In this document: one piece after another, positions 11,949 through 28,592 of the stretch
Layout: every line of letters starts with the position of its first letter
Numbering within the stretch: the first letter of the stretch is position 1
Assembly: GCA_963798915.1 (NCBI GenBank)
Contig: CAWCVB010000002.1
Coordinates: 352,001 to 416,000, forward strand
Source of the DNA: an uncultured Gemmatimonadales bacterium
Lineage (GTDB): Bacteria > Gemmatimonadota > Gemmatimonadetes > Gemmatimonadales > GWC2-71-9
DNA length: 64,000 nucleotides
Reading direction: 5' to 3'
The notes under the pieces: model-generated
The model's database searches: none
What the model was told of the DNA's origin: nothing
Seen by the model: only the letters and a program-made list of their open reading frames with translations
Program-made: the position numbers and the translations under genes

Positions 11949-12233
11949 GCCCGGGCGTCCCGGCATGGATGAGGGAGGGGCGGGTCAGAGACCCGCCCGG
12001 GCATCCCGGCATGGATGAGGGAGGGGCGGGTCAGAGACCCGCCCGGGCATCCCGGCATGGATGAGGGAGGGGCGGGTCAGCGATCCGCCCGGGCATCCCG
12101 GCATGGATGAGGGAGGGGCGGGTCAGAGACCCGCCCGGGCATCCCGGCATGGATGAAGGGAGGGGCGGGTCAGAGACCCGCCCGGGCATCCCGGCATGGA
12201 TGAGGGAGGGGCGGGTCAGAGACCCGCCCTTAC
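11949..12233. repeat. Tandem REP-like array, 6 x 46 bp
   Basis: Unit GCCCGGGCATCCCGGCATGGATGAGGGAGGGGCGGGTCAGAGACCC; hairpin GGGCGGGTC-AGA-GACCCGCCC; array ends in CTTAC. Confidence 0.9.
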
Positions 12234-12255
12234 GGTTCAGGTGTTCGGGGGCGTC

Positions 12256-15018
12256 ATGTCCGTCACGCTGGTCGTTTTTGCGGCTGCGCTCGCAGCCACC
12301 CCGCAGCTCCCGCCTGTCGCGGCGCCGCTCGGCGTCACTGATCTTCGCACCGAGTATCTCAGCGAGCCGCTTGGCATGGACGTGCTCCGCCCCCGGCTGA
12401 GCTGGCGTCTGGTGAGCACCAGCCGTAATACGCTGCAGACGGCGTATCAGATCGCCGTCTCGACCGACTCGGCCAAGCTCCGCACTGGCGGGTCGCTGGT
12501 CTGGAGCTCCGGCCGGGTCGCGTCGAATGCGTCAGTCTTCGTCGAGTACGGTGGCCCTGCGCTGCAATCGGCTACGCGCTACTACTGGAGGGTGCGGGTC
12601 TGGGATGCCGCAGGCCATGCCTCCGAATGGAGCGCTCCGTCCTGGTGGGAGACCGGGCTGCTGGATCGAAGCGACTGGACCGCGCGCTGGATCCGTCCGC
12701 CCGACGCCAACCACGATTCGGCCGGCGGCCCCGCACCGATGCTCCGCCGCGTCTTCACCCTTGCCGGGCCAGTGCGCTCGGCCCGGCTCTACGTGACCAG
12801 TCTCGGACTGTACCAGTTGCAGCTCAACGGGCACCGGGTCGGTGCCGATGTCTTCACTCCCGGCTGGACCAGCTACGGCAAGCGGCTCCAGTACCAGACC
12901 TACGACGTTACCGAGCTGCTTACCGCGGGAGGCAATGCGCTCGGCGCCACGCTCGGCGACGGATGGTACCGTGGCCACCTCGGCTTCGAGGACCGGCAGA
13001 ACCGGTACGGCAGGCAGGTCGCGCTGCTGCTTCAGCTCGACGTGCGCTATGCCGACGGACACAGTGTGCGGATCGTATCCGACGCCGACTGGAAAGCGGC
13101 CACCGGCCCGATCCTGATGTCTGACATCTACGGCGGCGAGACATATGACGCGCGGCGGGAGCGCCGCGGCTGGACCACCGCGACATATGACGATGGTGAC
13201 TGGCGTCCGGTCGCCATGGCGACTACACCGGCCGTCACGCTGGTCGCACCGGTCTCCGAGCCGGTTCGCCGCATCGAGGAGATCAGGCCGGTCGCCATCC
13301 TGCGCACACCGGCCGGCCAGACGGTGTTCGATCTGGGGCAGAACATCACGGGGTGGGTCCGGCTTCGGGTGACCGGGGCGGCGGGCACCACGGTCGTCCT
13401 GCGCCATGCGGAAGTGCTCGACAAGAACGGCAACGCTTACTTCGACAATCTCAGGAATGCCGCGCAGACCGATCGATACACGCTGAAGGGTGGCGCCGAG
13501 GAGGTGTACGAGCCGCACTTCACCTATCACGGGTTCCGCTACGTCACCGTCGAAGGGCTGCCGGCGCCGCCGACGCTCGAGACGATCACCGGAATCGTGG
13601 TCCATTCGGATCTCCGGGAGACCGGTCGCTTCGCGACCTCCGATACGATGCTGAATCGGCTGCAGCACAATATCGTCTGGGGGCAGCGCGGCAATTTCCT
13701 CGATGTACCGACCGACTGTCCTCAGCGCGACGAGCGGCTCGGCTGGACCGGCGACGCCCAGGTTTTTGCCCGCACGGCAGCGTTCAACATGTTCGTGCCT
13801 GGCTTCTTCGCGAAGTGGCTGGCCGATCTCACGGCGGACCAGCATCCGGGCGGCAGTGTCCCCTGGGTGATTCCCAACCCGATGGGCGGCGACTCGACGA
13901 CCTATGCCGGCGCGGCTGGATGGGCTGACGCCGCCGTGGTGGTGCCTTGGACGATGTACCTCGTGTATGGCGACCGCCGCCTGCTGGAGCGCCAGTATCC
14001 CAGCATGCGAGCCTGGGTCGAATATGCCCATCGCCAGACAGGGCCCGACCTGATCTGGCGTTCCGGTCGCCACTTCGGCGACTGGCTCGCCTGGCACAGC
14101 GATGATGCATCATACCCCGGCGCCACGACCGGCAAGGATTTCATCGCAACCGCGTACCTCGCGCACTCGACCGATCTGGTCGCACGGGCCGCCGCGGTGC
14201 TCGGGCGCACCGCTGATGCGCGGAAGTACACCGCGAGGTTCGCCGCGCTCCGCGCCGCGTTCCGACGGGAGTTCGTGTCGCCAGGCGGGCGGGTGGCCGA
14301 GAATACCCAGACCGCCTACGCGATGTCACTCAATTTCGGGCTGGTGGCGCCGAGCGACGTCGCGGGGGATGCCCAACGGCTGGCGGACAACATTCGCGCG
14401 CACGGCGGCCACCTGTCCACCGGATTTCTGGGCACGCCCGAGCTGACTCAGGCGCTCTCTCGTAACGGACATCTCGACGACGCATATCGGCTGCTGCTGC
14501 AGCGCGGGTATCCATCCTGGCTGTATCCGATCACCCGGGGCGCCACGACGATGTGGGAGCGCTGGGACGGCATCCGTCCCGACAGCTCGTTCGAGGAGCC
14601 GAGCATGAATTCGTTCAACCACTACGCCTTCGGCGCGGTGGGGGACTGGATGTACCGGGTGATCGGCGGCATCAACCTCGATCCGGCGGCGCCAGGGTAC
14701 AAGCACGCACGCATCGCGCCACGGCCGGGTGGCGGGCTCACCAGCGCCAGCGCCGCGATCGAAACGCTGTACGGTACTCTGGCGACCGCATGGCGCCAGG
14801 ACAGCGCCGGGTTCTCGCTGGATATAGACGTTCCCGCCAACACATCGGCGACGGTGACGTTGTGGGATGCAGCGGCTGCCCAGGTGCTTGAAGGGGACGG
14901 TCCGCTCCAAGGGGCCGAGGGAATTCGATCAGTACGGCAGCAAGGAAAGGATCTCGTGCTGGAGGTCGGATCGGGACACTACGCGCTCCGGGTCATCCCG
15001 CCTCACCACGCAGGCTGA
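12256..15018 (+). CDS. Secreted alpha-L-rhamnosidase (GH78)
   Basis: PRLSW, DLGQNITGW, PTDCPQRDERLGWTGDA, GATTMWERW, MNSFNHYAFGAV. Confidence 0.93.
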   Translation: MSVTLVVFAAALAATPQLPPVAAPLGVTDLRTEYLSEPLGMDVLRPRLSWRLVSTSRNTLQTAYQIAVSTDSAKLRTGGSLVWSSGRVASNASVFVEYGGPALQSATRYYWRVRVWDAAGHASEWSAPSWWETGLLDRSDWTARWIRPPDANHDSAGGPAPMLRRVFTLAGPVRSARLYVTSLGLYQLQLNGHRVGADVFTPGWTSYGKRLQYQTYDVTELLTAGGNALGATLGDGWYRGHLGFEDRQNRYGRQVALLLQLDVRYADGHSVRIVSDADWKAATGPILMSDIYGGETYDARRERRGWTTATYDDGDWRPVAMATTPAVTLVAPVSEPVRRIEEIRPVAILRTPAGQTVFDLGQNITGWVRLRVTGAAGTTVVLRHAEVLDKNGNAYFDNLRNAAQTDRYTLKGGAEEVYEPHFTYHGFRYVTVEGLPAPPTLETITGIVVHSDLRETGRFATSDTMLNRLQHNIVWGQRGNFLDVPTDCPQRDERLGWTGDAQVFARTAAFNMFVPGFFAKWLADLTADQHPGGSVPWVIPNPMGGDSTTYAGAAGWADAAVVVPWTMYLVYGDRRLLERQYPSMRAWVEYAHRQTGPDLIWRSGRHFGDWLAWHSDDASYPGATTGKDFIATAYLAHSTDLVARAAAVLGRTADARKYTARFAALRAAFRREFVSPGGRVAENTQTAYAMSLNFGLVAPSDVAGDAQRLADNIRAHGGHLSTGFLGTPELTQALSRNGHLDDAYRLLLQRGYPSWLYPITRGATTMWERWDGIRPDSSFEEPSMNSFNHYAFGAVGDWMYRVIGGINLDPAAPGYKHARIAPRPGGGLTSASAAIETLYGTLATAWRQDSAGFSLDIDVPANTSATVTLWDAAAAQVLEGDGPLQGAEGIRSVRQQGKDLVLEVGSGHYALRVIPPHHAG

Positions 15019-16072: not shown

Positions 16073-16420
16073 TCATGCGGAGCGGGGCGGAACCCGGCGC
16101 AGCCGGTTGGCCAGCCGCCAACCTCGCACGGTGCCGCCCATCGCGCCCGTAATCAGCGCGACACTGTAGATCAGGACCGTGGCGTCGGGCCCGATCGCGG
16201 CAACCGCCGGGACGACCAGCACGAGCACGAGGAGCAACGCGCCGGTAGCGATCAGGTCCCGACCGGCCACCTCGTTCACCTCGTACCAGACGTGTTCGTC
16301 CTCGAGCGTGGCCTTGACCCGGAAACCGTACCAGAGGTTGGGGGCCACTCGCCGCCGGGCGAGCGGCAGGCCGAGCCCGATGAGCATTAGCGCGAGCAAG
16401 CCAAACAGCAGGCTCACCAT
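16073..16420 (-). CDS. SdpI/YfhL family membrane protein
   Basis: PNLWYGFR..ATL.DE.VW...N...GR motif. Confidence 0.8.
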   Translation of the reverse strand: MVSLLFGLLALMLIGLGLPLARRRVAPNLWYGFRVKATLEDEHVWYEVNEVAGRDLIATGALLLVLVLVVPAVAAIGPDATVLIYSVALITGAMGGTVRGWRLANRLRRVPPRSA

Positions 16421-18471
16421 ATCCGTACCCGGTCGGCGGGTGGCAGGTATTCGCGCTCGTCCGGCGTGACGTTGAATGCCTGGTACCAGGGATCGAGGTT
16501 GCGCACCGTGAGCGCGCGATACTCTCCTGGCGCGTGCCCATCCGTCAGCAGTCGCTGGCGCAGCAGCGGCTCGCGGGACTTGCTGCGCCAGACCTGGCCG
16601 AAGCTGAGGAAGAACTGCTGCTCGCCGGTGAGCCCACCCACGATCGGTGCCTCCTTGCCGCCAAGCGAGGCATGCCACGCATCATAGGCCGCGGTAAGCC
16701 CGGCCAGGTCGGCAATGTTCTCCGTGAGGGTGAGCTTGCCATTGACGGCCAGGTCGCGGAACGGGTGGTACCCGTTGTACTGCTGGACCAGCTGCTCGGT
16801 GGCGGCGTTGAAGTGTGCCAGGTCCTCTGGCGTCCACCAGTTCCGCAGCCGTCCGTCCGCGTCAAAGTTGGCGCCGAGGTTGTCAAAGCTGTGGCTGATC
16901 TCGTGCCCGATCACGGCGCCGATGCCGGCATAATTCATCGCATCAGTGCGAGCCGGATCAAAGAAGGGCGGCTGCAGAATGGCGGCGGGGAAGTTCATGG
17001 CGTTCATGGCCGGCATGTTGACCGCGTTTACCTCCTGCGGTGTCAGGGACCATTCCGTCCGGTCTACCGGCCGGTGCAGCTTGGCGAGATTCTGCCGGTA
17101 CTGATATCGCTCCAGTCGCTCGGCGTTGCCATAGGCGTCGCCGGCGCGAATCTCCAGGCCGTCGTACGTGGGCCAGCGATCCGGGTAGCCGACGCTCACC
17201 CGCAGCGTCTTCAGCTTCCGCCGGGCTTCCGCCCGCGTGGCTGGCGCCATCCAGTCGAGTCGCCCGATGCGCACATCGAATGCGTGAATGATCCCAGCCA
17301 CCATCGCCTCGGCCCGCGCCTTGGCGCTCGCCGGGAAGAACCGCTCAACATACTGGCGCCCTACCGCAAACCCCAGCGCGCTGCTGGTGGCCTGGATGGC
17401 GCGCTGGTCTCGCGCGGCCTGCTCCGGTGCACCGCTCAGCACCTGGCCAAAGAAGGCAAAGTGCTCATGATCAAACGCCGATGGCAGCACGTCGGCCCGA
17501 TGCTCGATGGCATGGTAGGCCAGCAGTGCCTTCCACGATTCGAGCGGCTCGCTGGCCGCCAGCGCCGACAGGCCGGTGATGGCGCTTGGTTGCCAGGCCA
17601 CCAACGTGGCCTGGTCACCCAGGCCGGCGGCCGTAAAGAAGCTCTCCCATTCCAACCCCGGCGCCTTCGATGAGAAATCCGCTCGGGCCCAGTGATTGTC
17701 CCCTTTCACCACATCCCAGGTATCCTCGGGCTTCCAGTGCGTGGCTGCGATCCGGGTCTCCAGCGCCACGACCGCGTCCGCCATCCTGGCCGTGTCGGCA
17801 AACCCGGCGAGGCCGAGCATCCTGGCTACGTGGGTCCGGTATGCCGTCCTGGTGGAATCCATCGCGGGCGAGTCGTCGAGATAGTAACTCCGATCCGGCA
17901 TGGCGAGGCCGCCCTGCAGCAGCGCCGCCGAATTGCGGGAGGGATCGTCGAAATCCTGATCCACCCACAGGCCGAACAGGTTCTCAGTATGGAGCGCGCC
18001 ATCATTGATCACGTCTACGTCGGCCCGCATGGTGGCGCCGATGAAGCGCGCCAGTCCGGTGCGGTCATGGATCGCAGCGATCCGGGCCAGCTCGGGCTTG
18101 AGCGATGCCAGCCGTCGAGCCTCGATGGCAGCGGTGTCGAGATAGGCAGTGTAGAAGTCGCCGATGCGCCGGCGGTCGGAGCCTTGAGCCGCCTTGCTCG
18201 CCGCCGCATCCCGCACCACCTGCTCCAGTTGCTTTCCCGCCGTTCGTGCTGCGACCGAGAACGCGCCGACCGAACTTCGGTCGGCGGGAATCTCGGTCTG
18301 GCGCACCCAGGTGCCGTTGGCATACGTGAAGAAGTCGTCGCCCGGCCGCACGGAGCGATCCATGCCTGCGGTGTCCAGGCCCAGCACCAGTTGCTGCGCC
18401 GTGAGCGGAGTAGCGAGCAGGACGAAGAGTGCACCGACGAGGCGGATGATACGGGCGGAAGCGCGCTTCAT
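16414..18471 (-). CDS. M13 family (neprilysin/PepO-like) metallopeptidase
   Basis: PGDDFFTYANGTW, VNA, GHEISHSFD, ENIADLAG. Confidence 0.93.
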   Translation of the reverse strand: MKRASARIIRLVGALFVLLATPLTAQQLVLGLDTAGMDRSVRPGDDFFTYANGTWVRQTEIPADRSSVGAFSVAARTAGKQLEQVVRDAAASKAAQGSDRRRIGDFYTAYLDTAAIEARRLASLKPELARIAAIHDRTGLARFIGATMRADVDVINDGALHTENLFGLWVDQDFDDPSRNSAALLQGGLAMPDRSYYLDDSPAMDSTRTAYRTHVARMLGLAGFADTARMADAVVALETRIAATHWKPEDTWDVVKGDNHWARADFSSKAPGLEWESFFTAAGLGDQATLVAWQPSAITGLSALAASEPLESWKALLAYHAIEHRADVLPSAFDHEHFAFFGQVLSGAPEQAARDQRAIQATSSALGFAVGRQYVERFFPASAKARAEAMVAGIIHAFDVRIGRLDWMAPATRAEARRKLKTLRVSVGYPDRWPTYDGLEIRAGDAYGNAERLERYQYRQNLAKLHRPVDRTEWSLTPQEVNAVNMPAMNAMNFPAAILQPPFFDPARTDAMNYAGIGAVIGHEISHSFDNLGANFDADGRLRNWWTPEDLAHFNAATEQLVQQYNGYHPFRDLAVNGKLTLTENIADLAGLTAAYDAWHASLGGKEAPIVGGLTGEQQFFLSFGQVWRSKSREPLLRQRLLTDGHAPGEYRALTVRNLDPWYQAFNVTPDEREYLPPADRVRIW

Positions 18472-19197: not shown

Positions 19198-19689
19198 CTA
19201 CCGGTCGGGCGCCGTGACCGGCCGGCTCGCGCTTGCCTCGATAATCATGCGATAGGGGTCTGACGGGCTCTCGACATCCCACTGCAACCGCAGCGACGTC
19301 TCGCCCCATTCGATACAGGCATGGTAGCGGTCCTGGCCGCACTGATGCGGACCGGTCGCGATCCAGCGCCCTGCCGTATCCGGATACAGCTGGACCAGCT
19401 GGGTTGGGCTGCCAGCGCCTCGGCGCAGGTGGCTCAACTCCAGCCCCACGCCGTCCGGCATGGTCCGCCAGCATGTGGTGTTGTGGAATCGAAGTCCCGT
19501 GAGCGGTCCGGTGGCCCACTCTCCCTCTTCATGCCAGGTCACGGCCGATGGATCGGCCGCATTCTCTTTGACACGAATGCTGCCGGTCGCGGTGTGCACC
19601 TCGTCCCGGCCGCTCGCGCCACGCGCCTCGACCCGCACGGCCAGGTGCCGAACCAGCGCCAGGAGATGCCACGGCGATTGATTGCTCAC
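19198..19689 (-). CDS. DUF6314-like protein
   Basis: WHEEG.W, HLRRG, H.CG.DRY, W.V..P motifs; GTGA overlap with the upstream stop. Confidence 0.65.
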   Translation of the reverse strand: MSNQSPWHLLALVRHLAVRVEARGASGRDEVHTATGSIRVKENAADPSAVTWHEEGEWATGPLTGLRFHNTTCWRTMPDGVGLELSHLRRGAGSPTQLVQLYPDTAGRWIATGPHQCGQDRYHACIEWGETSLRLQWDVESPSDPYRMIIEASASRPVTAPDR

Positions 19690-20363
19690 CTGAATTGATC
19701 TGCCGCCGGATTCCAGAATTCTCCCGTCAGGCCCAGATGGTCAAAGATCGCCTTCATTTCTTCGGGGCCCGGGCGGCGCGCGTTCGCTTCCAATCGGGTC
19801 GAATACCAGGCGCGGGCCAGCCCCCAGAGCTGGGGAATTGTGACCAGCGGCCGCATCGGCGTGCCCTGCTGCGCGCACCATTCGCGCACCATTTCTTCCG
19901 ACCGGAAGAATAGCATGCGGCTTCAGGTGAATCCGATATCGTCCCACCATTGTGATGCGGGGAGGAGGCAATGAAAGAGCCAGCTTGACGGCTCCGGTCC
20001 GTCTGGTCCCACCTGCAGGCGCAGCGGTTCGCCTGACTGTTCGCACCGGGAACGCACCTCGGCCGGCTGCCGCAGGGCGGCCGGGACACCCAGGGCATCC
20101 CAGGCGCAGTTGGCGAAGTATTGCGTGCCGTTGCAGACAACCGCGTGGTGGGTTGGCACACCCGAGAAAGGCGGTGCCATCCGGATGGAGCTTCCGTCGG
20201 GCTCGAGTACGAGCACCCGCCGCGCCGCGAGTCGCGCATAGGCGGCGAGCACTGCAGGCACGTCGGCCCTTACCCGCGCTGCCACGTCCTCGACCGAAGG
20301 GCGGTTGCCTGTCTCGGCGAAGTGGCGGTACACCGCCAGTCTGGTTTCGCTGTCGAAATCCAT
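19686..20363 (-). CDS. merB: MerB-like organomercurial lyase, putative selenoprotein (UGA at 19923-19925 = Sec)
   Basis: N-terminal HTH, PFS..PT.H, NCAWDA (Cys96/Asp99 equivalent), SRC (Cys117 equivalent), DIGFT-U-SRMLFFRSEE (Cys159 equivalent); the two ORF-track pieces are in frame. Confidence 0.85.
19884..19919 (-). promoter_or_regulatory. Bacterial SECIS-like hairpin
   Basis: mRNA UGA-AGCCGCAUGCUA-UUCUUCC-GGUC-GGAAGAA; perfect 7-bp stem 12 nt after UGA, extendable with CGCAU/GUGCG. Confidence 0.75.
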
Positions 20364-20365
20364 GG

Positions 20366-21311
20366 TCAACCAAGTCCTTCCACGAACCCGCGACGCCAGC
20401 TGGCGTAGGCGGGCTGCCAGCCCAGTTGCCTTCCTGGCCTTGGCGTTGGAACCACCGCGGCTCAGCGTCATCATGGACACGCCTCCTTCACCGATCAGCA
20501 GCCGTGCAAGCCAGGCCGGCACGTGGCGTGGCGGCTTGGCGCCCAGGACCTCGGCCAGGAACGGCAGCCAACTCGAGACCGGCGCCGGTTCGTCGTCTAC
20601 CACATTGTAAATGCCCGGATCGCCCCGGGACATCGCCGCCGCCGTGGCCGTGGCAACGTCTGCTATATGAATGAAGGACCAGATGCCTGCTCCATTGCCC
20701 ACGACGGGAAACTTGCGCTGAAGAATCAGCTCTGGCAGCAGGGCTCCGCGGGCAATGCCGGTGCCCGGCCCGTAAAGCGAGCCGTAGCGAAGCGCCAGGG
20801 CCTCGAGATCGGTCGCAGTGCGAACGCGATCTTCAAGGTAGCGGATGGCCGCGAGGGTTCGCCTGAAGCTCGCGGGCGGGTGGGGATCCAGGGGCGCGTC
20901 TTCGTCCTTGACCGGTCCCCCCTCCCGCGCGAAGGGCCAGCCGCAGTAGCTCTGCGCAATGAATCGCCGGGCACCAGCCTGGCGGGCCGCGGCGAACAGG
21001 GTATCGGTGACCTCGGTGCGGAAGCGATTGGTGAGGGCAAACTCCTGGTCGAACTTCCTGAAGTTTCCGCTCAGATGTGCGAGTGCCGTGAGTTCGTGCA
21101 TCACGACCTCGGGCCCGCTTTCTACGACGGCCGCGGTCAGCGCCTCACGATCGAGTGCGTCGGCGATGGCCGGCCGGGCGCCCTGTGCTTCCACCTCCTG
21201 CGCCTTCTCCCTGCTCCGCACCAGCGCGGTCACCTCGTGGCCCTGCTGGACCAGCAGCGGTACGAGGCTCTTGCCTACCGCCCCCGTGCTTCCCGCGATG
21301 AATACTTTCAT
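20366..21311 (-). CDS. NAD-dependent epimerase/dehydratase; +1 frameshift near 20429
   Basis: VFIAGSTGAVG, LRYG..YGPG, SFIHIADVA; the natural C-terminus QLGWQPAYASWRRGFVEGLG* lies in another frame. Confidence 0.85.
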
Positions 21312-21387: not shown

Positions 21388-23964
21388 TCAGGGCGCCAGC
21401 TGCACCACGCGCCGCTCGACGTCGGTTCCCAGCGACACACCTACGGTCATGAACATCCCGGTGTGACCTTGCAGCCGTCCCCCTTCCACCACCCGAAGGT
21501 CCAGAGGCGTCCGGATTCTGAATTGCTGCTCGCCTCGTCCCTCTACCGTCGCAATGTAGCGACCATGCTCCTGGCGCCAGTCGAGCAGCCGGAGCCCGCG
21601 CGACGGGTCTCCCGGTTCCGGGCGGGTCTGTTGCGGCACCAGTTCGGCGCCGCCCGAAAACTGAATGTCGACAGCCGCGGAGTCGGCGAGCGACGTCTCG
21701 AAGGCCGGAGAAATGTCGTGCGGGGTTGCGACCGCGCGATATTCCACGGCCTTTCCATTGACGCTGACATGTGTGATGGTGGCACCGAGGGGAAGCGAGG
21801 GCTGCAGTTGGATATTGAGCGGCCTGGTGCCCTGCAGGCGGTGCAGCGCAAGCTGCAGCCGTCCCGGCTCACGCCGGATCGTGACGTCCAGCTTGCCGCA
21901 GCCGCTGTCGAGCCGCCGCAGCGTGAGTCGGTCCCAGTCAGCCGGCAGCTGGGGTGAGAGCATCACGCGGCAGTGCGGCGCATCTGCCCGGAAGCCCGCC
22001 AACCCGCGCAGCAGTGGCGTGATGAGCATGGAGGTCGAGAAGAACTGGTCCGGCATCGCGGTGTCCAGCGGGTCATAGAATGCTGCGGACATCAGCTCCG
22101 GCTGAACGCCGAGTGCAAAGTCATCGCCTGTGCGGGCAATGTCGCGGATGAGGTCATAGCCTGCCCAACCCCTGCGGGTCTGATAATCGGCCCACGCGGC
22201 AAAGCCGGTGACGAAGGGCCAGACGGCGCCGTTGTTGTAGTGCAGCGGCTCATAGAGCGGATGCATCCGGTCGAGCGTCCGGACGCCCCAGTCAGTGGTG
22301 ACCCGGTCGCTGGCCACCTGGGTCATCATCTGCCGCGCGTGGCCGGCGTCGAGCTGGCCAAAGGCGATGGCCGTCGCGGGCCACACCGTGAGCGCATCGT
22401 TCAGGCTGGTCTTCCCGTGGTCGTCCTCCAGCAGCGCGAAAGCATAGCGGCCGCTCCGCGCCATCCAGAAGCGCTGTTCAAGACTCGCGGCCGCCTTGTC
22501 GTGCAACGCGTCCAGCTCGGTCGCCAGCGCCGAGTCGCCGCGGGCGCGCGCCATGTCACGCAGTCCCTCGAGCGCCGCGACCCAGACACCGGCCAGGTAG
22601 ATGTCAGTGTGCAGCCGGTCACCGAGGTTGCCCACTTCAATGGCGCCGACTCCGGAGCCAGGGTTCTCCATCAGTCCATCGCCGTCAGTATCGCTCTTCC
22701 GGGACCAGCGATAGGCGAGCAGCAGCTTGTCCCACGTCGCGTCGATCCATGCCTGGTCACCTGAGGCGCGCCAGTACTCAGCGCACGCCAGGATCCAGTA
22801 TGGAGTCGTATCACCATGGTACCAGGTATAGGGATAGTCAGTCCACCACGGCAGACGCGCGGCGGAGTGGGAAATCTCGTGGGGAATCTTGCCGTCGGCG
22901 CGCTGGTACTTGCCAAGGAAGGAGAGCCCCTGGCGCACCAGGCCGAATTGCCCGAGCGCGTCCATGGCGAAGGAGTTGATGGCGGCGTCGCCACCGAAAT
23001 ACCAGCCGAATCCGGGACGGAAATTTCCCGGGCCGGCCTTGCCGTAGCCGGCCACCAGCCCGCAGCCCAGGTCGGGATTGCACACCAGTTGGCGATCGAG
23101 GCTCAGCTTGGCCCATTCGAAAGCGCGATTGAAGCCGGCATCCGGCGATTCGATCGAGACCAGCGAGTCGGCGACCTCGCGGAAATGTGCCACCTTGCGA
23201 TCCACCTGCTCACGAGCCGTTGCCAGCAGCCGGTTGGCCACGGCCCAGACCGAATCCTGCGACATCACGCCACCGGCAATCACGATCGGCAGGAAATGCG
23301 TCCGCGCCATCGCGGTGTCGATGGCCATCCGGAACTGTGAACCGAACGCGGGGGCGTCATGCGCGGCATGCAGCGTCCCCGACGTGGCCGCCGGTGACGC
23401 GACCACGCCGTTGATGGCCCACACCCCGCCCTGGGTCAACAGGAAGCCGCGATGCGCAGCATCCCACCCGATATGCTGGCCGCCAAAGCCGCCGGGCCAG
23501 GCCAGATTGAAGTCGGCGTGGAGGTGCACGATCACCTCCAGTGGGTGCACCGACTCCACATCGAGCAGGATCAGCGCACCTGGCTCGTCCAGAGCGGCTA
23601 GCACATGGGCCTTGACGGTGAAGGACGGATGCGAATAGACGATGGTCTTGTAGCCCGGATGAACGATGACCCGTCGGGCGACCGTGCTTGCCTCGATCGG
23701 GTCATCGTAATCGGGGATCTTGAATGCAAACGACAGATCGCGGACCAGTTTGATGGGCCAGGTCCAGGCTTCGAAGCCGCCGGTCTCATCGCCAAAGAGC
23801 GCGGCTCGGCGCCCTTCGTCTCCGAGGTAGACGCCAGGCCGTGCCGGCCCCTCCATATCGAGCGGCGACTCGGGCAGCGGAAATCTGGGGATGCCGGTGG
23901 GCGCCTGGGCCGCCGCCGACGCCGCGCCCAGCCCCAGCATCGCAGCGACCAGGATCGGGCGCAT
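21388..23964 (-). CDS. Secreted amylo-alpha-1,6-glucosidase-like (six-hairpin) glycoside hydrolase
   Basis: Signal peptide, GFGWYFGGDA, DGKIPHEIS, DTDGDGL, YNNGAVWPF. Confidence 0.8.
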   Translation of the reverse strand: MRPILVAAMLGLGAASAAAQAPTGIPRFPLPESPLDMEGPARPGVYLGDEGRRAALFGDETGGFEAWTWPIKLVRDLSFAFKIPDYDDPIEASTVARRVIVHPGYKTIVYSHPSFTVKAHVLAALDEPGALILLDVESVHPLEVIVHLHADFNLAWPGGFGGQHIGWDAAHRGFLLTQGGVWAINGVVASPAATSGTLHAAHDAPAFGSQFRMAIDTAMARTHFLPIVIAGGVMSQDSVWAVANRLLATAREQVDRKVAHFREVADSLVSIESPDAGFNRAFEWAKLSLDRQLVCNPDLGCGLVAGYGKAGPGNFRPGFGWYFGGDAAINSFAMDALGQFGLVRQGLSFLGKYQRADGKIPHEISHSAARLPWWTDYPYTWYHGDTTPYWILACAEYWRASGDQAWIDATWDKLLLAYRWSRKSDTDGDGLMENPGSGVGAIEVGNLGDRLHTDIYLAGVWVAALEGLRDMARARGDSALATELDALHDKAAASLEQRFWMARSGRYAFALLEDDHGKTSLNDALTVWPATAIAFGQLDAGHARQMMTQVASDRVTTDWGVRTLDRMHPLYEPLHYNNGAVWPFVTGFAAWADYQTRRGWAGYDLIRDIARTGDDFALGVQPELMSAAFYDPLDTAMPDQFFSTSMLITPLLRGLAGFRADAPHCRVMLSPQLPADWDRLTLRRLDSGCGKLDVTIRREPGRLQLALHRLQGTRPLNIQLQPSLPLGATITHVSVNGKAVEYRAVATPHDISPAFETSLADSAAVDIQFSGGAELVPQQTRPEPGDPSRGLRLLDWRQEHGRYIATVEGRGEQQFRIRTPLDLRVVEGGRLQGHTGMFMTVGVSLGTDVERRVVQLAP

Positions 23965-23965
23965 G

Positions 23966-25132
23966 CTACCTCACTGGCTCGACGCTGAAGGTCCACACCG
24001 TTTCCGAGCGGTAGTGCTGGTCCGGCTCCAGGATGGTGGAGGGAAAGCCAGGATGGTTGGGAGAATCAGGAAAGTGCTGCGTCTCGAGCGCGAGTCCGGT
24101 GCGATGCCGATACACCGTGCCGCCTTTTCCGGTAATCGACCCGTCCAGGAAGTTGCCGGAGTAGAACTGCACCCCGGGTTCGGTGGTGCGAATCTCCAGC
24201 ACCCTGCCGCTGGTCGGGTCGGTGACCCGGGCCGCCAGCCAAATGCCATCGTGGGCGTGGGTGAGCACGAAGTTGTGGTCGTAGCCACCGCCGAAGCGCA
24301 GCTGCTGGTTGTCGGCATTGATCCGCTCCCCGATGGGGTGCGGGCTTCGGAAATCGAATGGCGTGCCCGCCACCGGCACGATGTCGCCGGTGGGAATCAG
24401 CGTGCTGTCCACTGGCGTGAAGGAGTCCGCGGCGATCATCAGCTCGTGGCCCAGGATATCGCCCGAGCCGGCAAGGTTGAAATAGGAATGCTGGGTCAGG
24501 TTGACGGGCGTTGCCTTGTCGGTCTTGGCCTCGTAGTCGATGATGAACTGATTGCCGTCAGTCAGGGTGTAGGTGACCGTGGCCTGCAGCGTTCCGGGGT
24601 AGCCCTCGTCGCCGTCCGCACTGGTATGCCGCAACACGACGCCCCGCCGGCGCGCGTCCTCGAAGGGTTGCGCCTGCCATACCACCTTGTCGAAGCCACG
24701 GACGCCGCCGTGCAGTGCATTGGGACCGTTGTTGGTCGCCAGATGGTAGGTGGTGCCATTGAGCGTGAAGCGACCCTTGGCGATCCTGTTGCCGTAGCGG
24801 CCGACGATGGCGCCGAAGTAGGGCGAATCCTTCAGGTATCCCGCCAGACTGTCATATCCCAGCACCACGTCGCCCAGTGTTCCGTTGAGGTCGGGTACCT
24901 TGAGGGAGACGATGATGCCGCCGTAGGTCATGATCCGCACTTCCATGCCATGCGAATTCGTGAGCGTGAACAGCTCGACCGCTTCGCCGCCAGGCGTGGT
25001 GCCGAACGGGGCGCGTGTCACTGGTTCCTCCTGGGCTCTGGGCGCGTCCGGTTTCCTGGTGGAGCAAGCGGCCAGGCCGGCGAGCAAGGCCAGGCAGGAG
25101 CGGCGAAGCGGCTGCTTCATGATTCTGGTCAT
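23966..25132 (-). CDS. galM: Aldose 1-epimerase (lipoprotein)
   Basis: LAAC lipobox, GRYGNRI, LHGG, NLTQHSYFNL, GYDHNF, LETQHFPDSPN. Confidence 0.93.
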   Translation of the reverse strand: MTRIMKQPLRRSCLALLAGLAACSTRKPDAPRAQEEPVTRAPFGTTPGGEAVELFTLTNSHGMEVRIMTYGGIIVSLKVPDLNGTLGDVVLGYDSLAGYLKDSPYFGAIVGRYGNRIAKGRFTLNGTTYHLATNNGPNALHGGVRGFDKVVWQAQPFEDARRRGVVLRHTSADGDEGYPGTLQATVTYTLTDGNQFIIDYEAKTDKATPVNLTQHSYFNLAGSGDILGHELMIAADSFTPVDSTLIPTGDIVPVAGTPFDFRSPHPIGERINADNQQLRFGGGYDHNFVLTHAHDGIWLAARVTDPTSGRVLEIRTTEPGVQFYSGNFLDGSITGKGGTVYRHRTGLALETQHFPDSPNHPGFPSTILEPDQHYRSETVWTFSVEPVR

Positions 25133-26067
25133 TCCGGCTCGACGGTGAAGGGCACCAGCATGTGCTTGGTCCGGGTATGGGGCACTTCGGCGATCCAGGC
25201 GTACTCGCCGGGCTCGAATGTCGCCGTGAGGTAGCCCACCGAGCCGGCTGGCATCTCGTTGACGCCGCCAAGAAAAGTAGCCGGTGCCGGGACCTGCAGG
25301 CCTGCCGGACTGCTCCAGTCCATCCACGCCGCGAGCGAATCCAGGTTGGCATTGGGCTGAAGCTTGAGCAGGTGGACGTCGTGTCCCACGAAATTTTCAT
25401 GAGCCCGCTGGTCGGCAAAGTGCACGGCGACGGTCTGGATGCCCGCTACCGGCTTCCCCTCAACCCGGATTCCGCTATCGGCAGAGATGGTGAGGCTTAC
25501 ATCCGCCCGGGGTTCGGCGGCGCCTGACGCGGGCGCAGTCACCGTGAACTGGTGGACCATGCCCCAGGCCGAGGTGTCGCGATTGAATGAATGGAACGTG
25601 CCGCCGGACTTGACGTAGCACTCGAGGAGATAGGTCCCCGGGCTGAGCCTGATGGTGGACTGCGATGTCTGCCCGGGACCGGTGAGCCCCGGCCCGCCCA
25701 TGAAGACGACCTGCTGGAACCAGGTGGGCAGCCTGCCGAATGCGGCCATGGCCGAGTCGGGCTGTCCGGCGATGAGCCGGTCCATGCCGGCTTGGAACAC
25801 CGGCGCCACTTCCTTCTGCTGCCGAGCTGCGTCCACGCCCTCGGGCAGGCGTTCCACCACCGCGAAGTGGGTGACGGGCGAGGTGTTGTGGAAGCGAATG
25901 GTGACCCAGCCCGCCGGCACGGTGTCGGGCGCCTCGAACGACAGCCCGGTGGCCACTACGTTCATCGTGCCGGGCTGGTCGGTCCGCTCGGCGGCACTTC
26001 TGTCAGCACAGCCGAGCAGCGGGAGGGCGAGGAGGGTGGCGGCGAGCGTGGTGCGGCGGCATGGCAT
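25129..26067 (-). CDS. Lipoprotein with two cupredoxin-like domains
   Basis: LLGC lipobox; PGTYLLECY...H...GM; second repeat PGEYAWI. Confidence 0.65.
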   Translation of the reverse strand: MPCRRTTLAATLLALPLLGCADRSAAERTDQPGTMNVVATGLSFEAPDTVPAGWVTIRFHNTSPVTHFAVVERLPEGVDAARQQKEVAPVFQAGMDRLIAGQPDSAMAAFGRLPTWFQQVVFMGGPGLTGPGQTSQSTIRLSPGTYLLECYVKSGGTFHSFNRDTSAWGMVHQFTVTAPASGAAEPRADVSLTISADSGIRVEGKPVAGIQTVAVHFADQRAHENFVGHDVHLLKLQPNANLDSLAAWMDWSSPAGLQVPAPATFLGGVNEMPAGSVGYLTATFEPGEYAWIAEVPHTRTKHMLVPFTVEPE

Positions 26068-26449: not shown

Positions 26450-28534
26450 CTACCGAGCAGCGGCTTTCAGCGGCGTGACACGCGCCGAGCCGCCGAGCCG
26501 CCGAGCCCACGCCTCGATCTCGGTGAGCCCGCTCGAAGCGCCCGGCTGATGGGTCAGCACCAGCCGAAGTCTCGACGTCTCGATCGGGGCGAAGCTCACC
26601 CGATTGGCGCGATGGCCCTGGGGCTGTTCCGGTGAGCGCCGCTGGTCGGGTATCTCCTGCCATGCTCCATTGCGCCATGCCGCCAGCTTGTAACCTGCCG
26701 GCGCGCGAATGCTGTCGCCGTCATCCAGGAAATAGAGCATGACCCATTCGACCGGTCGGCTGACCCCGAAGTCGAGCTGTACCGTGTCTGCGGCGTTGCC
26801 CGAGCCGAGGGCGGTCCAGCGGTTGGGCGGCGAAGCGTGATACCAACGGTTGCCGTCAATCAGAACGTGGGGCGGTGATTTCGGCGCGCTGTACGAGGCA
26901 CGGATGGCAGGGAACGCCCCTGAGTCGTTGTTGACCGCAAAGTTTACCGGCCGGTCCACCGGCGCGAGCGCCGGTGGCGAGCCCATGTCCGCGACCAGCC
27001 GGGTGAGTTGCGCTGCCCGTCCCACGCGATGGCCATCCACATAGAGTGCCAGCCCCGCGCCGCGCCCATAGTGGGAGCCGTCCCGGTCCCAGAAGATCGA
27101 GACCTGGCGGCCCCGGTACGCTACACCGTCCAGCGCAAACCAGTCCCAGGTGTCGGGAATGAGCGGGTGGACTTCCAGCGAATCATCGCCCCGGGGCCGG
27201 AGGCCGGCGAGGCCGGTGATGATCAGGTCCACGTAGCTCGAATGGAAATAGTGCTCGCTGTGATTATAGGAATCGTGGCCGCGCCAGGACCCGGTAAGCG
27301 GATTGGCGGCTTCGGCGATGTAGGGCCGGCCGTCCTTGCGCTGGTCCAGCGTGAAGACCTTGAGCAGCCGGAAATAGTCTCCCGGTGTCACCACCGTCTG
27401 CCGGTAATCGTTCAGCAGGTTCGCCATGGCCGTCAGCGTCTGGCTGGTAGCGTAGGGCCACTCGTTGCCGCTCCAGACGCAGCAGGTGGGAGAGATCAGG
27501 AACTGTGGATCGTGCTGCTCGACCGTGGTGGGACCGTGCGGCGCCATGAAGTAGCTGCTGTCCATCAGGAACCGCCAGGCGCCCTCGTAGCCCGAGTCCG
27601 GCAGGCTGAACTGCCAGGGTACGTAACCGATCAGCTCACGCCCATGGGAGTTCCCCGCATACGGTCCGGTCTCGTAGGTGCGGCTGCCGGCGCGGATCCC
27701 TCCTTTTTCGTCGTGTGCAAACTGGTGAAAGAAGAATTGCCGGGTGGAATCCCAGAGTTCATCCTGCACCCGTGTCTTGAGGCGCGTCGCCCGGCTGGCG
27801 TAATCGCGCGACAGCGCGGAGTCGCCGAACAGCTGAGCAGCCGAGGCGATAGCCCGTGCATCGGCGAACAGATAGCTGTTGAGCGTGGGCCGGTATCCCT
27901 CGGCGCCGGCAAAGGAGTCCGCCGTCTGGCGGCTGTTGATATTGGTTTCCATGCCGTCGTGCATGCCGTCCCACCGGAACATCGCGTGGGCCGAGTCCCA
28001 GTGCTCGGTCAGCCAGCCCTGATATTGAGTGAGCATGTGCGGCAGCATCCGGTGAAGAAAGGCGGAGTCGCCGGTGACGAGATATGCGGCCCAGACCGCA
28101 TCGCCATACCAGTTGCTGTAGCTCCGGGGTTCCGCACCGGGTGTCTCGAACCAGTAGCGCGCGAAGTCCTCGACGTAGCGCCGGTCCTTGAGCCACCGGG
28201 TTTCATACATCTGGTGGCCCAAGGGACAGCTGATCGAGCCGTACGCGCCCGACCAGAAGGGCCGGTCAATGAATTCGGTGAAGGTGTAGCCGGTTTCCGG
28301 CGAGCCGTAGGTCAGGTGCTTGGTGACCAGCTCCCAGCGGTAATAGTAGGTGGCGTCGATAGCCGAATCGGGCGACTCGAAGAAGGGAATGTTGTGTTCA
28401 TACCAGTCCCAGTCCTGATTGTCCCACCAGGTTTGGCGCGCGAGAATGGCGCGATGATCCAGTGCCGGGGGCGCCGTGCGACAGGCGGTGATGATGGCGG
28501 ACGCCGTGATGGCGGCCAGCATGAGTCTTGTCAT
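26450..28534 (-). CDS. GH63-like (MGH1-type) glycoside hydrolase lipoprotein with C-terminal discoidin-like domain
   Basis: NIPFFE, YYYRW, DGME, RPTLNSY, WSGNEWPY, HYFHSSY.DLIITGL. Confidence 0.8.
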   Translation of the reverse strand: MTRLMLAAITASAIITACRTAPPALDHRAILARQTWWDNQDWDWYEHNIPFFESPDSAIDATYYYRWELVTKHLTYGSPETGYTFTEFIDRPFWSGAYGSISCPLGHQMYETRWLKDRRYVEDFARYWFETPGAEPRSYSNWYGDAVWAAYLVTGDSAFLHRMLPHMLTQYQGWLTEHWDSAHAMFRWDGMHDGMETNINSRQTADSFAGAEGYRPTLNSYLFADARAIASAAQLFGDSALSRDYASRATRLKTRVQDELWDSTRQFFFHQFAHDEKGGIRAGSRTYETGPYAGNSHGRELIGYVPWQFSLPDSGYEGAWRFLMDSSYFMAPHGPTTVEQHDPQFLISPTCCVWSGNEWPYATSQTLTAMANLLNDYRQTVVTPGDYFRLLKVFTLDQRKDGRPYIAEAANPLTGSWRGHDSYNHSEHYFHSSYVDLIITGLAGLRPRGDDSLEVHPLIPDTWDWFALDGVAYRGRQVSIFWDRDGSHYGRGAGLALYVDGHRVGRAAQLTRLVADMGSPPALAPVDRPVNFAVNNDSGAFPAIRASYSAPKSPPHVLIDGNRWYHASPPNRWTALGSGNAADTVQLDFGVSRPVEWVMLYFLDDGDSIRAPAGYKLAAWRNGAWQEIPDQRRSPEQPQGHRANRVSFAPIETSRLRLVLTHQPGASSGLTEIEAWARRLGGSARVTPLKAAAR

Positions 28535-28592
28535 AGGTCGTGGGTCGTCGGTGGGCAGATCACCGGTCGTCGGGCGCAAGCGTCGGCTCGCC

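Follow-up and report, generated by a model that had tools for sequence, protein, structure and literature searches.

Here we describe a gene on the minus strand of a 64,000-nucleotide stretch of DNA (the window) from an uncultured Gemmatimonadales bacterium (GenBank assembly GCA_963798915.1, contig CAWCVB010000002.1, positions 352,001 to 416,000 of the forward strand). With a probability of about 0.85, judged from comparative sequence analysis, it is one gene encoding a 225-residue protein of the organomercurial lyase (MerB) family, in which the UGA of codon 147 is decoded as selenocysteine (Sec). A sequence-only reading of the same DNA, made without database searches, had proposed a 225-residue MerB-like selenoprotein. 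This proposal held when the conservation of the TGA, its pairing with Cys in relatives, the fit of the downstream hairpin to a Sec insertion sequence (SECIS) and the Sec machinery of the genome were taken together; the term lyase is applied by homology.

The MerB-like gene and its in-frame TGA

The gene and the codons of its putative active site are located as follows.
Positions 20363..19686, minus strand: MerB-like gene, predicted to encode a selenoprotein, complete, with 225 codons and a terminal TGA (19688..19686), translated with TGA as Sec (U).
Positions 19925..19923, minus strand: in-frame TGA, codon 147, predicted Sec, aligned with Cys159 of MerB (3f2g).
Positions 20106..20108, minus strand: codon TGC of Cys86, equivalent of MerB Cys96 in the alignments to 3f2g and 5c17.
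Positions 20097..20099, minus strand: codon GAT of Asp89, equivalent of MerB Asp99.

When TGA is read as U, the product runs MDFDSETRL...WWDDIGFT-U-SRMLFFRSEE...ADQFR, with U at position 147. The open reading frame (ORF) at 19923..21311 (minus) stops at the TGA at 19925..19923, and the ORF at 19686..19916 (minus) keeps to that frame and starts with an ATG two codons later, so the earlier statement that the two ORFs are one frame separated by a single TGA was correct. Matches to relatives in tblastn were single high-scoring segment pairs (HSPs) spanning residues 1-224. The guanine-plus-cytosine content at third codon positions (GC3) is 0.75-0.76 for the gene, against a median of 0.77 for long ORFs.

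In protein databases the gene is mostly recorded in parts. Of the best 120 database proteins, 117 align over only 63-65% of the query, 111 are exactly 146 residues long and one is named 'organomercurial lyase'. Three of these truncated entries (P0005, P0089 and P0104) end in ...VFT and separate entries begin with MLFFRSEE, which is the splitting that the sequence-only reading expected of automated annotation. A large protein family, widespread in soil bacteria, is therefore recorded as truncated or split proteins. According to the accessible part of PMC8261052, merB surveys screen for Cys96, Asp99, Cys159 and Cys117; genes annotated as 146-residue fragments do not pass a screen for Cys159 and would be invisible to such surveys. 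Should these proteins indeed cleave Hg-C bonds, the capacity of soils to degrade methylmercury would be underestimated.

Conservation of the TGA and of the frame beyond it

A scan of one genome per species gave 216 stretches encoding a relative, and 80 of them (59-70% identity to the window protein) were kept for the locus counts. At the aligned column TGA was found in all 80 loci, or 81/81 with the window, each time within a single tblastn HSP crossing the codon. By their titles, the carrier metagenome-assembled genomes (MAGs) are from Chloroflexia, Verrucomicrobiae/Udaeobacter, Blastocatellia, Terriglobia, Thermoanaerobaculia, Acidobacteriota, Gemmatimonadota, Eisenbacteria and others.

In an alignment of 39 clade members, the 78 residues downstream of the TGA hold many invariant columns. 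Residues R190, R196, R197, F207 and F216 are conserved with a codon entropy of 0.8-1.9 bits (R190 1.92, R197 1.88). Since the residues are conserved and their synonymous codons vary, the frame beyond the TGA is under selection at the protein level.

More distant relatives of the window protein show what stands at the TGA column in uninterrupted members of the family. A profile search of 1.84 billion cluster representatives (50% identity) gave 3,225 matches at E <= 0.001; of the best 150, 61 end exactly at the Sec column, 55 cross it and 34 are other fragments. The 55 that cross it have Cys in 45 cases, Trp in 4 and another residue in 6, so that the pairing of Cys with TGA at this column, proposed earlier as a check, was found. 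Similarly, column 147 in 43 full-length relatives (24-40% identity) holds Cys in 37, Trp in 3, and Ala, His and Arg in one each. A word-indexed search with residues 140-225 returned 2 matches from 7 candidates and missed P0002-P0004, which contain that region, so that its result is no sign of a lack of full-length forms.

Trp stands at the Sec column in the database proteins P0002, P0138, P0142, P0168 and P0273, which are full-length or partial. In these entries a gene caller that applied another genetic code probably translated a TGA as Trp.

A SECIS-like hairpin downstream of the TGA

The following elements lie directly 3' of the TGA.
Positions 19911..19922, minus strand: 12-nucleotide (nt) spacer from the UGA to the hairpin (S148, R149, M150 and L151), placing the apical loop 19 nt after the UGA.
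Positions 19910..19893, minus strand: SECIS-like hairpin with a 7-base-pair (bp) stem, UUCUUCC/GGAAGAA, and the loop GGUC, covering codons F152-F153-R154-S155-E156-E157.

This is the stem-loop UUCUUCC-GGUC-GGAAGAA noticed earlier at 12 nt after the TGA. It was present in both the minimum free energy (MFE) fold and the centroid fold, with an energy of -7.4 to -7.5 kcal/mol for the hairpin alone. Hairpin and codon statistics were calculated from 81 sequences, i.e. the window and the 80 loci. The apical loop was GGUC in 81/81, the inner six stem pairs were formed in at least 80 of 81 and the outermost pair in 76. Changes within the inner six pairs were U-A to U-G (7), C-G to U-G (1) and a single A-A (1/81). 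The spacer occurred in 33 sequence variants at constant length, as the ungapped register holds throughout.

The codons that encode the hairpin are nearly fixed at the nucleotide level: TTC (80/80), TTC (80/81), CGG (81/81), TCG (81/81), GAA (74/81) and GAA (62/76) in order. The other conserved Arg (seven) and Ser (two) columns have a codon entropy of 1.55-2.39 bits, with 3 or more codons each. A codon entropy of <=0.1 bits was found in 4 of the 6 hairpin columns, compared with none of 77 other conserved degenerate columns.

The bacterial SECIS (bSECIS) model, as given in the legend of Fig. 2 of the 2026 review PMC13188914, has a loop of 3-9 nt, an upper stem of 4-16 bp and a G in the first two loop positions; the UGA-to-loop distance in the same source is 16-37 nt and the MFE <= -7.5 kcal/mol. 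The 4-nt loop GGUC, the 7-bp stem and the spacing of 19 nt all lie within these published limits as quoted there, which answers the SECIS check that had been suggested for this hairpin.

The comparison with fdhF of E. coli made by the sequence-only reading was also accurate as to the shared GGUC loop and the similar spacing. In fdhF of strain K-12 the UGA is codon 140 and the apical GGUC loop follows 18 nt later, compared with 19 nt in the window gene, and in both genes the hairpin lies directly 3' of the UGA inside the coding sequence. The fdhF stem is longer and interrupted (MFE -14.9 kcal/mol over 48 nt), whereas that of the window gene is a plain 7 bp, and the sequence similarity of the two hairpins is confined to the loop. 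Such a compact, fdhF-like SECIS may permit expression of the gene in E. coli.

Selenocysteine machinery

The window genome is 3.3 Mb in 17 contigs and 84.8% complete. A tRNA-Sec was detected with 66.8 bits (gathering threshold 47) and was called SeC with anticodon tca by ARAGORN. SelA (411.4 bits), SelB-wing_3, the C-terminal wing domain (57.3), and SelD (383.2) were all above their curated cut-offs, so that selA, selB, selC and selD, named in advance as a check on the selenoprotein claim, are present in the genome.

From the 80 loci, 40 carrier genomes were selected, and 39 of these have SelA as well. In an order-level sample of 41 genomes, it was present in 5/5 carriers, 28/36 non-carriers and 33/41 in total; the SelA and carrier tallies of relatives include the unpublished genome G023. 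Because SelA is common in non-carriers too, its link with the gene within the order is necessary rather than discriminating, and Sec use seems widespread in this lineage. A formate dehydrogenase model searched against the whole genome gave no TGA-containing match (best 80.4 bits, no stops). A genome scan for coding-like TGA flanks with a bSECIS-like hairpin at relaxed thresholds gave 139 candidates, by criteria that are unspecific.

Fold and putative active site

The protein matched Pfam MerB (PF03243) over residues 66-187 with 106.9 bits (gathering threshold 27), covering profile positions 1-125 of 126. Among solved structures, phmmer found MerB2 (5c17, E 6.4e-8) and MerB (3f2g, E 1.3e-7). 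In these alignments C86 falls on Cys96, D89 on Asp99, C107 on Cys117 and the TGA column on Cys159, in agreement with the catalytic residues assigned before any search was made (CAWD to Cys96 and Asp99, UGA to Cys159).

An AlphaFold2 model built with the 39 aligned clade members had a mean predicted local distance difference test score (pLDDT) of 92.6 and a predicted template modelling score (pTM) of 0.89. Foldseek gave 11 matches at E <= 0.001, the top 11, all of them MerB or MerB2 (E 2e-11 to 2e-7), with a template modelling (TM) score of 0.50-0.71 and about 22% identity. The active-site geometry predicted from the sequence alignments places C86, D89 and U147 in the catalytic positions of MerB.

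Cys86 is invariant in 39/39 clade members and is Cys in 40/43 distant relatives. Asp89 is likewise invariant in the 39 aligned clade members; the 43 distant relatives have Asp in 23, Cys in 13 and another residue in 7. Thr146 is invariant (39/39) within the local motif F-T-U-S. The Sec clade has two further cysteines that hardly vary, Cys132 (FHC) and Cys163 (WC), and Cys132 is found in 0/43 Cys-type relatives, which have Phe, Val, Ile or Leu there. Cys132 could be a partner or resolving thiol for the selenol, possibly as a selenenylsulfide. The family would be a natural case of Sec replacing Cys in a catalytic metal ligand and not in a redox motif, with Cys-type sisters available for comparison.

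Comparison with SaoL, MerB and Cys-type relatives

SaoL, the 'selenocysteine-assisted organometallic lyase' (NCBIfam NF040728), is among the closest known parallels in the accessible part of its description (Haft and Gwadz 2022, bioRxiv 10.1101/2022.07.06.499078). As set out there, SaoL resembles the window protein in being a PF03243 protein that is usually cut at its UGA in databases, with a Sec aligned to MerB Cys159 and a Cys and an Asp aligned to Cys96 and Asp99. It differs in its CU dipeptide, which lies some 50 residues before the C-terminus, whereas the window protein has F-T-U-S with the Sec 78 residues from the end. The same portion of the text places SaoL in a conserved nine-gene locus of strict anaerobes, whereas no neighbour recurs in more than 6 of the 80 loci of the window family, whose carriers are MAGs of Verrucomicrobiota, Acidobacteriota, Chloroflexota, Gemmatimonadota and the like. 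No SAO neighbourhood was detected by clustering and Pfam annotation of the neighbours; the Sao-specific hidden Markov models (HMMs) were not run on them. Identity with SaoL was considered and rejected, as the SaoL model reached 43.1 bits on the window protein (cut-off 140) and matched only residues 34-118, and as the CU motif is absent.

SaoL is the only protein described as a MerB-like selenoprotein in the accessible portions of the literature and of NCBIfam, and the only MerB-like row in the parts available of the selenoprotein tables of PMC9312934 and PMC13188914. Neither 'MerB' nor 'lyase' occurs in the GOS selenoproteome paper (PMC2398784). Within these sources, the earlier claim that Sec-containing MerB-like proteins had already been reported is right for SaoL and does not extend beyond it, and SaoL is a different branch of the family. 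The window gene belongs to a large, apparently undescribed Sec branch of the MerB family, distinct from SaoL.

MerB is the organomercurial lyase EC 4.99.1.2 (plasmid R831b; PDB 1S6L, 3F0O, 3F0P and 3F2F-H), and MerB2 is represented by PDB 5C17. The window protein shares with both the fold, the aligned catalytic positions and the equivalent of the buried Cys117; it differs in being about 22% identical, in having Sec for Cys159 and in lying outside a mer operon. Identity with canonical MerB was rejected, since the curated models NF033555 and NF009710 scored 51.7 (cut-off 200) and 59.8 (cut-off 193), respectively. With regard to the MerB signature (Cys96, Asp99, Cys159 and Cys117), Cys86, Asp89 and Cys107 are present and the Cys159 position is UGA/Sec, at which the signature fails. 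A Sec in this position is nevertheless predicted from the alignment to be functionally analogous to Cys159.

The Cys-type relatives (e.g. P0130, P0136 and P0140, from metagenomes and genomes) have the length and architecture of the window protein and share with it the motifs CAWD, WWDD, T-C/U, LFRSE and the C-terminal WY..RL...FW. They differ in their 24-40% identity, in Cys at position 147 (37/43) and in the absence of Cys132 (0/43).

Proposed mechanism and alternative explanations

In E. coli fdhF, the UGA is decoded by SelB·GTP·Sec-tRNA(Sec) at the downstream hairpin. In the window gene, SelB·GTP·Sec-tRNA(Sec) would similarly bind the GGUC hairpin as the ribosome meets the UGA, and Sec would be inserted. 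In MerB, Asp99 is the proton donor. By analogy, Cys86 and Sec147 would clamp the soft metal or metalloid atom of an organometallic substrate, which may be methylmercury or another organometal, and Asp89 would protonate the leaving carbon. This would be a MerB-type protonolysis of the carbon-metal bond, with a more nucleophilic selenolate in place of the Cys159 thiolate.

Lyase activity, which we infer from homology, has in our judgement slightly better than even odds. The invariance of Asp89 in the clade favours catalysis over mere binding. According to the accessible part of PMC11639659, selone mimics of organomercurial lyase cleave Hg-C bonds faster than their sulfur analogues (thiones). Other observations count against this function. 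The very strong Hg-Se bond could hinder product release, and the curated MerB models stay below their cut-offs as described above. Neighbouring genes were scanned with Pfam using the longest ORF within 700 nt on each side of the gene, and no Mer family was found among these 76 upstream and 70 downstream ORFs or among the window neighbours. For MerA, the best score was 372.7 against a cut-off of 454.45 in the 84.8%-complete genome.

The protein may alternatively be a genuine selenoprotein that is not a lyase, acting as a high-affinity trap, chaperone or sensor for a soft metal (Hg, Cd, Cu or As) or as a selenenylsulfide redox centre. We consider this unlikely, although it keeps a substantial share of the probability. 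The lack of a mer operon and of MerA above its cut-off, together with the low scores of the curated MerB models, would fit such a role. The clade-specific Cys132 and the nearly invariant Cys163 would fit it as well, as Cys132 could act as a resolving residue, and 13 of the 43 distant relatives have a Cys at position 89, which makes a CxxC motif. Most known bacterial selenoproteins are redox proteins in the available part of PMC9312934. But Asp89 is required for protonolysis only and does not vary among the 39 clade members, and the whole MerB fold and the Cys117 equivalent have been kept.

The broadest form of the lyase reading is that the family is a Se-dependent organometal lyase, most plausibly for methylmercury, that works without a mer operon in abundant soil phyla (Verrucomicrobiota/Udaeobacter, Acidobacteriota, Chloroflexota and Gemmatimonadota) and provides an uncounted route of methylmercury degradation. 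With all of its parts, the phyla included, taken jointly, this is a speculative proposal and we regard it as doubtful.

As to the decoding itself, several points weigh against Sec insertion. The 76-nt stretch that contains the hairpin had z = -0.88, with 40 of 200 shuffles folding as well or better, and the energy of -7.5 kcal/mol (RNA.fold) or -7.4 kcal/mol (evaluation of the 7-bp stem) is borderline for the bSECIS model in the form given by the figure legend. Rfam gave no match to a SECIS family, with two chance-level matches (E 1.5 and 1.8). The stem showed no two-sided (compensatory) covariation in the 81 sequences, because it hardly varies. The 61 representatives that end at the Sec column are presumed to be Sec forms, an assignment made without their DNA. 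The hairpin is raised above chance by its conservation in sequence and pairing and not by its energy, and the support for the structure therefore rests on the invariance of synonymous sites and on the wobble changes.

The TGA could also be a true stop, giving an N-terminal MerB fragment of 146 residues and a separate 76-residue protein starting at M150, the halves of which may reassemble. Gene callers do annotate 146-residue entries and entries starting with MLFFRSEE, and an ATG at codon 150, two codons past the TGA, is present in 79 of 81 sequences, so that re-initiation is possible on sequence and this too must be set against the Sec reading. But the stop is TGA in 81/81 sequences from many phyla and never TAA or TAG, and Met or Leu is usual at position 150 in the unsplit Cys forms too. 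The TGA coincides with the column of the catalytic Cys159, which is Cys in contiguous relatives, so that a split protein would be short of an essential ligand. A split would also leave a nucleotide-invariant GGUC hairpin at SECIS spacing without a role, and all but one of the 40 carrier genomes have SelA. Altogether we find a true stop very improbable.

That the TGA is an artefact of sequencing or assembly, or that the gene is a pseudogene with a recent nonsense mutation, has a negligible chance: the apparent one-base frameshift in the adjoining upstream gene makes errors or decay conceivable here, but the same codon stands in 80/80 independent loci and in the related genomes G009, G019 and G024, and beyond the TGA the frame stays open up to a normal end and encodes conserved residues.

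Distribution and probable exchange between lineages

The distribution of the gene was compared among genomes. In the 40 relatives of the window genome (G001-G040), strong matches (59-60% identity, one TGA each) were found in G009, G019 and G024, which are of the same family as the window genome, and a partial match, also with one TGA, in G010. Within the genus, only 1 of 9 other genomes has the gene. The window copy is 70% identical to the copy of a Chloroflexia MAG, compared with 59% to that of its congener. None of the window's four neighbouring proteins was found by tblastn beside the gene in loci L104-L108 of related genomes. The closer similarity to other phyla than to the congener and this lack of synteny together point to horizontal spread of the gene. 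The gene stands alone, its occurrence is patchy, and its neighbours differ even between related genomes. No trace of a recent insertion was seen around the gene: flanking repeats are only short and of low identity, GC content is flat at 0.65-0.68, and GC3 is typical.

A quick tree of 140 rows and 145 columns was poorly resolved, with 12 of 137 branches starred. Presumed Sec and Cys forms were interleaved in it; 15-16 changes would be needed on this tree, and its well-supported branches force only at least 2. The window copy fell in an all-Sec group of 42 rows (Shimodaira-Hasegawa-like approximate likelihood ratio test, SH-aLRT, 93). As the tree resolves so little, neither a count nor a direction is given for the switches; repeated exchange of Sec and Cys forms in the family is a speculative possibility.

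Neighbouring genes in the window

The MerB-like gene, which is the only MerB-family gene in the window genome, is flanked by two genes on the same strand.
Positions 20369..21311, minus strand: upstream NAD-dependent epimerase/NmrA-like gene (Pfam Epimerase 87.4 bits, NAD_binding_10 67 bits).
Positions 19198..19689, minus strand: downstream DUF6314 gene (Pfam DUF6314 35.2 bits, cut-off 23.1).

The GTG start of the DUF6314 gene overlaps the stop of the MerB-like gene (GTGA), which suggests translational coupling in the window genome only. Upstream, a stop in an alternative frame of the epimerase-like gene lies 3 nt before the MerB-like ATG. Both genes are probably co-transcribed with the MerB-like gene in the window genome. 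They are not conserved partners of it: NAD_binding_10 was upstream in only 2 of 76 relatives, and DUF6314 was absent from the 70 downstream neighbours of relatives and gave no tblastn match in the 80 loci. The Pfam families of the neighbours were heterogeneous, and in an all-against-all clustering of 1,367 neighbour ORFs the largest cluster occurred in 6 of 80 loci. Since the neighbour ORFs were picked mechanically, some of them are spurious (31/76 upstream and 27/70 downstream without a family).

Close to the 3' end of the epimerase-like gene (20369-20470, minus), the reading frame appears to shift by one base. The frame of the Epimerase domain runs without a stop into the MerB-like frame, giving an open frame of 563 residues, and a second frame gives a plausible C-terminus, ...RQLGWQPAYASWRRGFVEGLG. 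The frameshift could be an assembly indel, a sign of a decaying gene or part of a real fusion.

Further away, an M13 peptidase is located at 16414-18471. The surrounding stretch is rich in glycoside hydrolase genes (12196-15018, 21388-23964, 23966-25327 and 26450-28579), with an alpha-L-rhamnosidase, a GH116/MGH1-like protein, an aldose 1-epimerase and an MGH1-like glycoside hydrolase with a GH65 C-terminal domain.

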